This document shows positions 12,795 to 16,647 of a DNA stretch of 36,248 nucleotides, piece by piece. Within the stretch, counting starts at the first letter, position 1. Each line of letters starts with the position of its first letter. The DNA comes from a virus. Location: positions 1 through 36,248 of the IMG/VR virus record IMGVR_UViG_3300045988_150173. The stretch is one strand, 5' to 3'. The notes beneath the pieces were generated by a model. That model saw only the letters and a list, made by a program, of their open reading frames with translations, made no database searches and was not told the DNA's origin. The translations under genes were made by a program, and so were the position numbers.

Positions 12795-13264
12795 TACTTG
12801 CCACCTCCTTTCCGACGTTTTTTTAGTTCATCTAGCTTACCACTTGCTTTTAAGCGCTGGTAAAGCTGGATATTGGCATTAAAGCTGTCGTATGCCTTTG
12901 CTTTCTGTTCATGTTCTCTGGTTCGCTTCGATACCTGGTAACCGGGTTCATAAGCACTCCGTAGCTGGTCCTCAAAGTAGGGACGGTTATAGAACTTCGA
13001 GAAAGACGTGTAGACAGGCTTGGGGTTCTTCTTTCCTTTTGTTGCCTGAACCTGCTGATTTAGCCATGCTTGGAGAGCGATGTCTTCCTCAAACTGGATT
13101 CTGTGAAGCTGATACGCTTCTAACCGTAAGTAGTACTCATCTAGCGTCAGCGCTTCAACTTCTTTTAGGTCATGGAAGCCCAGATAAGCTAAGCAGTTTA
13201 AAAGGATCCCGCGATAGGTAGTCGCAGAATCCTGCTCAACTTGATCTAGGCCTTCATGTTTTTT
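12794..13264 (-). CDS. Tail assembly chaperone -1 frameshift extension (gpT-like part of gpGT)
   Basis: The -1 frame is open from the slip site to TAG at 12796-12794, about 154 codons (KKHEGLDQVEQDSATTYRGILLNCLAYLGF...ELKKRRKGGGK). It has no start codon of its own near its 5' end. The stop overlaps the TMP GTG start. Confidence 0.75.
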   Translation of the reverse strand, partial: KKHEGLDQVEQDSATTYRGILLNCLAYLGFHDLKEVEALTLDEYYLRLEAYQLHRIQFEEDIALQAWLNQQVQATKGKKNPKPVYTSFSKFYNRPYFEDQLRSAYEPGYQVSKRTREHEQKAKAYDSFNANIQLYQRLKASGKLDELKKRRKGGGK

Positions 13265-13596
13265 GATGTCAGCTGGACCTGTGCTGACTTCAGCATTTCG
13301 GCCTTCACGGAATCGAAAACCTTGTTCAGCTTAGCCGGTGTCAAACCGTCCAAGTAGTCGTCAATTGCGGCTTGTCCCGGACGTGGTGAATTACCATAAG
13401 CTGCCGCATAGATGATGATAGCCAACATACCAGCGTTGTTGGACCCGATCCCCGTCAAAACCTGGGTCAGCCCCAGACCAAAATTAATCTGAGGGCCACC
13501 TTGCTGAGTGATGACCGGCATCGCCTTATCCAGCTCACGAATGAAGCGAACTCCAAAGTGCAGCTCCAATTTCTTATCACCAAAAGTTAATTCCAT
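13246..13596 (-). CDS. Tail assembly chaperone (gpG-like)
   Basis: 116 aa, between the major tail protein and TMP. It ends 12 nt after an A AAA AAC slippery heptamer. Confidence 0.8.
   Translation of the reverse strand: MELTFGDKKLELHFGVRFIRELDKAMPVITQQGGPQINFGLGLTQVLTGIGSNNAGMLAIIIYAAAYGNSPRPGQAAIDDYLDGLTPAKLNKVFDSVKAEMLKSAQVQLTSKNMKA
13258..13264 (-). promoter_or_regulatory. Slippery heptamer A AAA AAC for the tail-chaperone -1 frameshift
   Basis: The minus strand reads tcA AAA AAC atg in the gpG zero frame. This is a canonical X XXY YYZ site. Confidence 0.75.
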
Positions 13597-14995: not shown

Positions 14996-15263
14996 CTACA
15001 ATCATCGTGTTTCCCTTGAGTGGGCGCCGTCCAGTCGTCAGTCGGTAATGCTTATCACCATCATCAATGGTTAAATAGCTAAAACTAACTTCGACTGGAT
15101 GTAGTGTCCGCACTACTAACGACCGCTGGTTAATGTTTCCCAGCACGTTAGCAGAACGGTCAACTCCTACATCAGTGACGTTTGCCATGTCCTCAGCTAC
15201 TAGCTTGATGTCACCGCTGCGGTGGCCTTCCTGGTAGAGCTTCACTACGCTATCCATTCGCAT
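14979..15263 (-). CDS. Head closure / head-tail adaptor protein
   Basis: 94 aa from ATG 15263 (MRMDSVVKLYQEG...), overlapping the upstream stop. The call rests on position and size. Confidence 0.45.
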   Translation of the reverse strand: MRMDSVVKLYQEGHRSGDIKLVAEDMANVTDVGVDRSANVLGNINQRSLVVRTLHPVEVSFSYLTIDDGDKHYRLTTGRRPLKGNTMIVGEDIG

Positions 15264-15630
15264 GGCTATCACCTGCGTATGGATTGATGAACTGAGCCTT
15301 CCCCAAGGACTTAATCTCCCGTTTCTTTCGCCATTCAGCGATGTCATCGAGGAAACTGTCGAAGTCCGTGTTATCAAAGGTAATGGATTCGCCCTCTTGA
15401 GAGTACGAAGACATGCCTTCATTCTTCAAGCGGTTATACCGCTTCACACAGACTTCCAGGGGGATGTAGTTCAATTCACTTGGAAATTCTTCTTCAGTAG
15501 TCAGGCCTAGCTTGAACCGGGCTTGGGAAACTGTATTTTTGATAATCAAATCTAAAACACTATCCATCTTATCGGTGGACAGCTGCAACATGGTTTTTAA
15601 ATCTTTTTTATTAACGGGTTGGTCCTCCAT
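15250..15630 (-). CDS. Head-tail connector protein (gp6/gp15-like)
   Basis: 126 aa, the first gene after the capsid region. An AAGGGGG RBS is present. The N-terminal helical region is typical of phage gp6-like connectors. Confidence 0.55.
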   Translation of the reverse strand: MEDQPVNKKDLKTMLQLSTDKMDSVLDLIIKNTVSQARFKLGLTTEEEFPSELNYIPLEVCVKRYNRLKNEGMSSYSQEGESITFDNTDFDSFLDDIAEWRKKREIKSLGKAQFINPYAGDSHANG

Positions 15631-15643
15631 TTTGGAACCCCCT

Positions 15644-15790
15644 TTACTTTACTAATGCCAGTAATTCGTCCTTAGTGGCACTGGCAGTGTAGCTAATGCC
15701 GTGTTTATCAAGGTAAGCCTTGATTTCAACTATGGTATTAGCAGACGTTGGTTTAACGTCAGTGTCGCCTGCTGACGAATTTATTTTCCC
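15644..15790 (-). CDS. Putative -1 frameshift C-terminal extension of the major capsid protein (46 aa, HeH/SAP/Rho-N-like)
   Basis: The -1 frame reads INSSAGDTDVKPTSANTIVEIKAYLDKHGISYTASATKDELLALVK*. It contains no ATG, GTG or TTG between the upstream in-frame stop (15883-15881) and its own stop (15646-15644). Confidence 0.55.
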   Translation of the reverse strand, partial: GKINSSAGDTDVKPTSANTIVEIKAYLDKHGISYTASATKDELLALVK

Positions 15791-16647
15791 GGCGTAATGG
15801 TTGCTACTACAATGCCGTCCAAGCGTTCTGGGAATACCTTCAAAGCGTCCATGATTACTGATTGATAAGTCAGAGAATCGTTAACGTTATTGTGGGCAAT
15901 CCCGATTAAGCCAGTCTCATCAGTCGTAAAGTTGAATGCCTGAGAAAGAGCCCCACCAACTTGAGCATAAGCAATATTTAAGTTGTTAGCCGCAGTTGCG
16001 ATTACTTTGCTTTGTGGGACAGCACTGGAAACGATAACCGAGTTGAAGTTGAAGAAGCCTTGTAGGTAAGTCATACCAAAGGCAGTTTGCAAAGTAACGT
16101 CGGTGTTACCAAGGTAGTCGTAAAAGTCTAGTGGGTTGACAAAAAGGACTGATTGAATGTCATCATCTTCCCACTTCACAGCCAACTGGCCCATTACCTT
16201 AGCCACAGCTTCCTTAAAAGTCGTTGCGGTAGCGGCTGTAACGCCTGTGGTATTAGCTAAGTAGTTGAATAGCCCAGTCTTAACGTCTTTCTGGACTTCT
16301 CTTAACAGCTTAGCATCAGTATCGTTAACTGCTGCTTGAAGGCCGGAAGATTGAATTGCTTCAGCGGTAACCAGCTTACGGTACTTGGCGTAATCCAACG
16401 TCAGTGTTTCAGCAAGTTTCCGGGTTACCTTGGACAGCGGAATAACTTCCCCTTCGCCAGCCTGGGTAGAGGCCTTAGTGACTTCGGACTTGTAAATCTT
16501 AATTTGGTTACCAACAGGCATTGGCGTTAAGCGGGTAACGCCTAGAATTTCTTGCAGCTTCTTAATTGAACCCGTGAACTGCTCCGCGAAGTCGATAGAG
16601 GCGGCAACCAGATCCTTCTGCATAGTAGTATTAGTATCAACAACCAT
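15781..16647 (-). CDS. Major capsid protein
   Basis: 288 aa, directly after the scaffold gene. Abundant-protein codon usage is an impression by eye. The last two sense codons form G GGA AAA. Confidence 0.8.
   Translation of the reverse strand: MVVDTNTTMQKDLVAASIDFAEQFTGSIKKLQEILGVTRLTPMPVGNQIKIYKSEVTKASTQAGEGEVIPLSKVTRKLAETLTLDYAKYRKLVTAEAIQSSGLQAAVNDTDAKLLREVQKDVKTGLFNYLANTTGVTAATATTFKEAVAKVMGQLAVKWEDDDIQSVLFVNPLDFYDYLGNTDVTLQTAFGMTYLQGFFNFNSVIVSSAVPQSKVIATAANNLNIAYAQVGGALSQAFNFTTDETGLIGIAHNNVNDSLTYQSVIMDALKVFPERLDGIVVATITPGK

Follow-up and report, generated by a model that had tools for sequence, protein, structure and literature searches.

Here we examined the 3' end of the major capsid gene in a 36,248-nucleotide (nt) stretch of viral DNA (IMG/VR record IMGVR_UViG_3300045988_150173, positions 1 to 36,248; hereafter the window), which comes from a temperate phage of Limosilactobacillus. 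Comparison with related sequences indicates that a programmed -1 ribosomal frameshift very probably operates at this gene end and gives some of the capsid subunits a 46-residue tail that carries a helix-extended loop-helix (HeH) domain. The product of the capsid open reading frame (ORF), 288 amino acids (aa) long, matches the phrog_544 major head protein in a profile search (E 1.4e-53), and on the minus strand its coding sequence ends ACG CCG GGA AAA TAA. An earlier note, made from the letters of this DNA, had described an in-register G_GGA_AAA over the last two sense codons, and the sequence agrees (positions in Table 1). This slippery heptamer is the sole in-frame X_XXY_YYZ motif within the capsid gene, and the capsid ORF is also the only one among the 66 window ORFs of at least 80 aa that has such a heptamer at its end.

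In the -1 frame, translation would continue as INSSAGDTDVKPTSANTIVEIKAYLDKHGISYTASATKDELLALVK, and the 150-nt gap between the capsid gene and the head-tail adaptor gene is exactly filled by this 46-codon extension and its stop. A codon scan from the upstream stop to the end of the frame found no ATG, GTG or TTG, which bears out the earlier reading of the frame as start-less, and no Shine-Dalgarno-like motif precedes any ATA or ATC codon of the window's -1 frame. The predicted fusion of capsid and extension has 334 aa and a mass of 35.9 kDa. If it is made, the phage has, beside the 31.1-kDa short form, a second capsid species that is absent from current annotation. The junction lysine is a trypsin site, so that no junction-spanning tryptic peptide is possible and a tryptic digest would give only INSSAGDTDVKPTSANTIVEIK. 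Readthrough of the capsid stop codon was considered and set aside: the zero frame meets TAG after 16 codons, and the domain is not encoded there. An upstream Shine-Dalgarno stimulator like that of dnaX was likewise rejected, as a GGAG lies upstream in some relatives, is not conserved and is absent from the window.

The C-terminal 30 aa of the extension match the Pfam family Ish1 (PF10281) at 32.0 bits, with a gathering score of 26.6. The HeH/LEM family (PF12949) is found at 24.8 bits, under its gathering score of 28.9, and SAP (PF02037) was not reported. Using an alignment of 13 extensions, AlphaFold2 predicts a disordered start followed by helices at residues 18-27 and 38-45, with a predicted local distance difference test (pLDDT) score of ~90. 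The predicted fold fits the helix-extended-helix layout, in which two short helices are joined by an extended loop of ~10 residues. Together with a profile match to ORF7 of Listeria phage A118 (given below), these results uphold the suggestion of the earlier note that the last 30 aa are HeH/SAP-like. The best solved-structure match to the extension profile is FluMu gp35 (HI1507; PDB 2OUT, residues 93-120, TVEQLKAQLTERGITFKQSATKAELIAL; E 4e-4). Foldseek with the 46-aa model gave nothing significant, the T4 endonuclease VII C-terminus, the CDNF SAP-like domain and Rho all having E of at least 0.9, and a Pfam search of the window extension returned no Ig-like match. The computed isoelectric point of the extension is 5.55. 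It is thus mildly acidic and not basic, a weak argument against non-specific DNA binding.

The same arrangement recurs in relatives that share the window's capsid family. Our comparison set comprised 47 viral-contig loci (handles beginning with L) with capsid identities of 49-86%, and among named proteins the nearest come from Limosilactobacillus reuteri, mucosae, fermentum and vaginalis. The HeH frame abuts the capsid stop at -1 in 26 loci. One locus (L009) retains the slip site and stem with a 16-aa extension from which the HeH domain is absent, three (L038, L043 and L044) encode capsid and HeH domain as an in-frame fusion, and two are uninformative. The remaining 15 have no extension and the adaptor gene lies directly next, an organization also found in GenBank phages LfeSau and JNU_P11, with capsid-adaptor gaps of 44 and 14 nt, respectively. 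All extension-bearing loci end AAAA-TAA or AAAT-TAA, as G_GGA_AAT TAA, as A_AAA_AAT TAA, or as NNA_AAA TAA, with TCA or TTA and then AAA. Extension-less loci have other capsid ends, such as GGT AAG TAG. An alignment of homologues had been proposed in the earlier note. The 26 loci keep the HeH frame at -1, with no conserved start codon and with an A-rich slip motif; the full heptamer is not conserved.

Within the HeH codons, the ratio of nonsynonymous to synonymous polymorphism (pN/pS), summed over all pairs, was 0.20 in the -1 frame, and the two remaining frames gave 1.98 and 2.15. Purifying selection on these codons is thus seen in the -1 frame only. This bears on another reading, by which the module is a relic in decay or owes its frame to an assembly error: an in-frame capsid-HeH gene would have lost one base, or been miscalled by one, and the tail would no longer be made. 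In-frame relatives do exist, a one-base change would interconvert the two forms, and L009, with its slip site, stem and 16-aa extension, would show that the module can decay. Such an origin is scarcely credible, given the low ratio above and the presence of the -1 arrangement at 26 separately assembled loci and, behind other capsid genes, in six or more GenBank phages. The linkers have all stayed free of stop codons, and an identical miscall of a 4-base run across independent assemblies is implausible. At L009 itself (L009:2349-2412), GTC AAA ATA A is kept along with the 6-nt spacer and a 7-base-pair (bp) stem, CGUCCGA/UCGGACG, and the -1 frame runs for 16 codons (ITTSEDKSDDNPKGDQ) without an HeH domain. 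From its sequence, this locus could be either a decayed cassette or one that encodes a very short tail.

Start codons are not conserved in the HeH frame. There are none in the window or in L003, and those of L004 and L005 are confined to the final third of the frame. The L006-L030 group has GTG at the first HeH residue, where the window, L003 and L005 have GTT, GCT or GCC. Slip site and invariant KPT motif lie 30, 42, 45 or 60 nt apart; each of these lengths is divisible by three, and no stop codon occurs in between. We therefore weighed whether the HeH frame could be an independent small gene, which would use a non-canonical start or a restart after the capsid UAA and yield a free peptide of ~30-46 aa. 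Stand-alone HeH proteins beside head genes exist, FluMu gp35 with its match to the extension profile among them. A118 ORF7 has an ATG that overlaps the capsid stop as TAATG, a GTG start is annotated in Javan68, and the GTG of the L006-L030 group would offer another. For the window we consider this explanation very unlikely, because its frame has neither ATG, GTG or TTG nor a Shine-Dalgarno-like motif before ATA or ATC, and the L006-L030 GTG is not conserved as a start codon elsewhere. An independent gene would not need an open linker in a fixed frame, yet all four linker lengths are multiples of three. It would also leave the slip motif, the stem and the in-frame fusions unexplained.

A putative stimulatory RNA structure lies 3' of the slip site. 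Of 15 distinct related sequences, 14 have a 6-nt spacer and then a GC-rich stem of 6-7 bp. The stem is CGUCAG/CUGACG in the window and L005, CGUCGG/CCGACG in L003, CGUCCG/CGGACG in L009 and phages phiPYB5, LF1 and LFP01, and CGCCCG/CGGGCG in the L006 group. The loops are 6, 7, 9 or 12 nt long and unrelated in sequence. Across 13 distinct sequences all six pairs are standard, with compensatory changes at two of the six (pair 3 is U-A or C-G; pair 5 is A-U, G-C or C-G), and sliding the 3' partner by 1-3 nt lowers the pairing from 100% to 24-44%. The window and L003 stems differ by two synonymous third-position substitutions, which compensate each other. Pairs were counted by script, as a MAFFT gapless alignment put the 3' arms out of register. 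Across the window, only 0.9% of positions are followed, 5-9 nt further on, by the start of a stem with 6 bp or more, of which 4 or more are GC pairs; for a distance of exactly 6 nt the share is 0.23%.

Both hairpins proposed in the earlier note are present where it had placed them (Table 1), although the first is not the minimum-energy fold. The CGUCAG/CUGACG hairpin alone has a free energy of -6.6 kcal/mol. The minimum-energy fold combines a 5-bp UCGUC/GGCGA helix, beginning 5 nt past the heptamer, with GACGUU/AACGUC, for a total of -10.8 kcal/mol. The GACGUU/AACGUC hairpin is broken in L005 and the L006 group and is therefore probably incidental to the D-V-K-P-T-S codons. Whichever of the predicted folds forms, the modelled stem begins 5-6 nt downstream of the slip site. 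A covariance model of the subgroup with 12-nt loops recovered L009, LF1 and phiPYB5; it was too sequence-specific, and its alignments contained spurious matches. Pairing of the hairpin loop with sequence further 3', as a pseudoknot, was rejected on inspection by eye, which found no convincing complementarity; no computation was made.

Taken together, these features suggest the following mechanism for the frameshift. The majority of ribosomes would read GGA AAA, terminate at UAA and release the 288-aa capsid protein. A minority would stall on G_GGA_AAA, with the stop codon next and the RNA stem 5-6 nt downstream, and slip back one base, with tRNA-Gly and tRNA-Lys re-pairing on GGG AAA or tRNA-Lys alone re-pairing on A_AAA. 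In most relatives, GUC, AUC or GUU precedes A_AAA. These would not re-pair the P-site tRNA, so that the element common to the family is A_AAA, UAA and the stem. The family pattern points to tRNA-Lys slippage, possibly with the stop codon waiting in the A site. After the slip, ribosomes would read AUA AAU UCG and onward through 46 further codons. The product would be a 334-aa isoform comprising the HK97-fold core, a flexible linker of ~16 residues and the HeH domain. The two isoforms would be expected to co-assemble, giving sub-stoichiometric HeH tails per head. By analogy with the Ig-like tails of other phages, we speculate that the tail is an accessory surface domain.

The A run at the site could also allow RNA polymerase to slip and add one A, in which case the fusion would arise by normal translation of an edited mRNA. 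An A run is present at the site in every extension-bearing relative, with six-A runs in L004 and L005, and one added A would give the same protein. Efficient transcriptional slippage in bacteria needs about 7-9 identical bases, and the window and most relatives have only four A. A stem that is held 6 nt from the site and shows compensatory changes would also not be required for the polymerase to slip, and we give this route very little credence.

Several points count against a programmed -1 frameshift in the window. The slipping is inferred from sequence comparison, and the Listeria precedent discussed below is known through a review account (PMC5009743). Many of the 47 loci are closely related, and the counts given above are not counts of independent events. 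The full X_XXY_YYZ heptamer is missing in most relatives, which keep A_AAA before TAA, so the classical tandem-slip model fails for the family as a whole. Within the window, the family-conserved helix is not the preferred fold, with an ensemble probability of essentially zero, and all candidate stems are modest (-5.9 to -10.8 kcal/mol, z = -2.2). The stems in the relatives were located by a best-stem search near the site, which favours pairing. The covariance model of the 12-nt-loop subgroup finds the window site weakly (10.4 bits, E 1.6), yet as its top window match.

Table 1 Features at the capsid gene end of the window, with positions numbered from its first letter.
Feature	Position	Strand	Remarks
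Slippery heptamer G_GGA_AAA	15784..15790	minus	Last two sense codons (Gly-Lys), X_XXY_YYZ register
Putative -1 extension, 46 codons, first codon AUA	15647..15784	minus	4.85 kDa
Predicted HeH domain, extension residues 17-46	15647..15736	minus	Pfam, AlphaFold2, hhalign, pN/pS
TAA of the -1 frame	15646-15644	minus	AGGGGG ribosome-binding site of next gene directly 3'
Spacer UAAAUU, 6 nt	15778..15783	minus	Slip site to stem; zero-frame stop + 3 nt
Family-conserved putative stimulatory hairpin	15757..15777	minus	CGUCAG (15777-15772), 9-nt loop, CUGACG (15762-15757)
Alternative predicted folds, window phage only	15744..15778	minus	UCGUC/GGCGA (15778-15765) + GACGUU/AACGUC (15760-15744)
Major capsid protein gene, zero frame	15781..16647	minus	288 aa, 31.1 kDa; stop TAA 15783-15781
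Head-tail adaptor gene	15250..15630	minus	phrog_132, E 3.6e-30

The head module of the window has the order portal, MuF-like minor head protein, scaffold, capsid and adaptor, with the scaffold gene (phrog_2932) upstream of the capsid gene. An AlphaFold2 model of the L038 capsid, which is 55% identical to that of the window, matches HK97-fold phage capsids including 1ohg (Foldseek E 1e-11 to 4e-9). By the phrog_544 match and this model of a relative, the window capsid is an HK97-fold major capsid protein. Further along the late genes, the tail assembly chaperone gene (13246-13596, minus strand) has an in-register A_AAA_AAC at 13258-13264, four codons before its stop, and its -1 frame is open for 154 codons, to about 12797. 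By its sequence, the chaperone site looks like the usual G/GT-type frameshift, and the phage would thus use two -1 shifts in its late operon.

The capsids of L038, L043 and L044 are 338 aa long and end EVKPKANSSKEDIMAYLTKKNISFDENASRDDLFKLVE, with the HeH domain in frame. In the L038 model the core spans residues 1-283, residues 287-300 are disordered (pLDDT 33), and helices are predicted at 310-319 and 330-337 (pLDDT ~90). The matches of this core to HK97-fold capsids reach E 3e-11. None of the 120 best protein-collection matches has such an in-frame fusion; fusions were found only in the more distant loci. Other members of the window capsid family (P0133, P0169 and P0215 in our protein set) have an in-frame C-terminal Big_2 or S-layer SbsC_C domain in place of HeH. 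From these in-frame domains, the C-terminus of the window-type capsid appears to be a usual site for accessory domains, and the existence of tail-less relatives indicates that the tail is dispensable for building this capsid. The members with a Big_2 or SbsC_C domain are 375-450 aa long; in several other long ones, for example P0131, P0136, P0144 and P0262, the C-terminal part has no Pfam match.

A megablast search of the region against GenBank phages gave no match, and tblastn with the 46-aa extension returned 64 phage records, of which those inspected are described here. The capsid gene ends G_GGA_AAA TAA in phiPYB5 (L050) and LFP01 (L062) and TCA AAA TAA in LF1 (L061), and all three have the stem given above after 6 nt. 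JCL1032 (L060) and PM411 (L063) end G_GGA_AAA TAG, followed by a 9-13-bp stem in the former and CCCCGG/CCGGGG in the latter. R10.1 (L053), a phage of L. rhamnosus, ends C_CCA_AAA GCG TAG with GCCGUC/GACGGC after 7 nt, and JNU_P1 (L052) ends GCA AAA AGC TAG with a stem of -23 kcal/mol. All seven phages have an unannotated HeH frame at -1. JCL1032 has an annotated ORF9 (locus 327-497) that covers part of the region but stops short of the end of the HeH frame (locus 302-526), so that ORF9 probably belongs to a different frame.

The phiPYB5 capsid (373 aa, with a protease gene adjacent) is unlike the window capsid (E 0.24), and the DNA of the two aligns from the slip site on. Across the junction, GCGTCAAAATAACGCCG is common to LF1 and L006, whose capsid genes differ. 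Both observations suggest, without proof, that the signal travels with the domain. It is accordingly possible, though we hold it only tentatively and think it rather doubtful, that slip site, spacer, GC stem, linker and HeH domain form one portable recoding cassette. In this form it would recombine onto unrelated capsid genes of Lactobacillaceae phages, and its fixed sub-stoichiometric dose of tails would have a specific role, such as binding of a cell-wall polymer or stabilization of the head. If this were so, the signal would move with the domain and would not have evolved afresh after a chance out-of-frame landing. A portable cassette with a specific, dosed role would also explain why the shifted form persists beside in-frame forms.

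The HeH domain was also found in other relations to the capsid gene. In Lj771, KC5a and phiAQ113, which have another capsid family, the annotated major head protein ends with an in-frame HeH domain. In Lactobacillus phage Sha1, F375_gp04 (L064:1-429, annotated as a hypothetical protein) has a C-terminal in-frame HeH motif, TIPDIKKYLDKHGIDYSHAKFKGDYVALIPED. The HeH frame lies at +1 of the capsid gene in S. equinus phage Pika (L051), Leuconostoc phage phiMH1 (L058), Javan626 (L059), Javan39 (L066) and Javan68 (L065). ACN CCC AGY, a few codons before the stop, is common to four of these +1 phages, and Javan68 has CCC TAA. By their sequence, these streptococcal and Leuconostoc sites are candidate unannotated +1 capsid frameshifts like that of phage PSA.

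The arrangement of slip site, stem and HeH frame thus follows the capsid gene, without annotation, in many deposited genomes of phages that infect lactobacilli, with a +1 version in streptococcal and Leuconostoc phages. Since it is unannotated in so many, annotation pipelines would regularly miss a part of the virion. In this family, one capsid type occurs naturally in in-frame, -1, +1 and tail-less variants that can be compared. What is known of recoding mechanisms is unchanged by the window case.

Among the papers searched, from which the primary Listeria and A2 reports were missing, none names the HeH domain as the product of a capsid frameshift. Among the known systems compared, FluMu gp35 is unlike the window extension in being a stand-alone 131-aa protein with its own start, and it is not a capsid extension. 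Going by its gene number, we take it to lie in the Mu-like head-gene region.

Ig-like domains provide the broader parallel. Phage structural proteins acquire them either in frame or through frameshifting, and the frame relation has been ascribed to chance landing (Fraser et al. 2006; Hendrix, as quoted in PMC5009743). Like the HeH tails, they are small C-terminal domains that stand in frame, at -1 or at +1 across unrelated capsid families. They differ from the window tail in fold, an Ig fold as opposed to a two-helix HeH, and chance landing differs from the HeH unit, in which the slip site and stem apparently travel with the domain.

The precedent named in the earlier note was Lactobacillus casei phage A2, in which a -1 shift yields two capsid isoforms, gp5A and gp5B (Garcia et al. 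2004, via PMC5009743). Like the window phage, A2 infects lactobacilli, and its capsid gene finishes with a heptamer whose last three bases are AAA (C_CCA_AAA), with a structure downstream. That part of the comparison stands. The A2 extension differs in being ~85 aa long and an Ig-like Big_2 domain (30.6 bits), an extra sense codon, GCG, lies between heptamer and stop (C_CCA_AAA GCG TAA), and the capsid belongs to the protease-processed type. In R10.1, the A2 slip site is combined with an HeH extension. Better precedents are phages A118 and A500, with a -1 shift, and PSA, with a +1 shift, in which the extensions are of the HeH/SAP kind.

In PSA, a +1 frameshift takes place at ACA_CCC_(UCC_GAA) with a pseudoknot as stimulator (Zimmer 2003, via the review of Atkins et al. 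2016, PMC5009743), and the long form is annotated with "ribosomal slippage" in NC_003291. The likeness to the window is a recoded capsid extension with a related domain (MKVVELKEELDKRGITYNTSDLKSDLILKL; Pfam SAP, 27.9 bits, above the gathering score). PSA is unlike the window in the direction and place of the shift, which goes forward (+1) on a proline codon that precedes the stop by several codons, and in its capsid, which is of the protease-processed HK97 type.

The closest known system is that of the Listeria phages A118 and A500, whose coat genes utilise -1 frameshifting (Dorscht 2009, as summarised in Atkins et al. 2016, PMC5009743). The A118 cps gene ends GCG GGA AAC TAA, and its -1 frame is a separately annotated ORF7, "HeH/LEM domain-containing protein" (GKLMAARSGKTDSAPIKDFSVMTVAELKEELANRNIEFASNAKKAELVALLEGSE), which matches Pfam HeH at 44.9 bits. 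A118 and the window share a G_GGA_AAN that covers the final two sense codons, with the stop directly after it and then a hairpin, the same order of the head module, and homologous extensions (hhalign probability 95.5%, E 1.5e-8, 39 columns). The capsids themselves are not detectably similar in sequence comparison (BLASTP E 0.36, 22% identity over 116 aa), and the host genus differs. The A118 hairpin at the site is far stronger, at -20.3 kcal/mol versus -6.6 to -10.8 kcal/mol for the window, and A118 has an ATG overlapping the capsid stop where the window has none. The A118 frameshift was shown experimentally according to the review (PMC5009743), whereas that of the window is predicted from sequence. 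In all likelihood, then, the window site is a well-supported, unannotated example of the A118/A500 type of capsid frameshift with an HeH tail, a kind of recoding that is already known.

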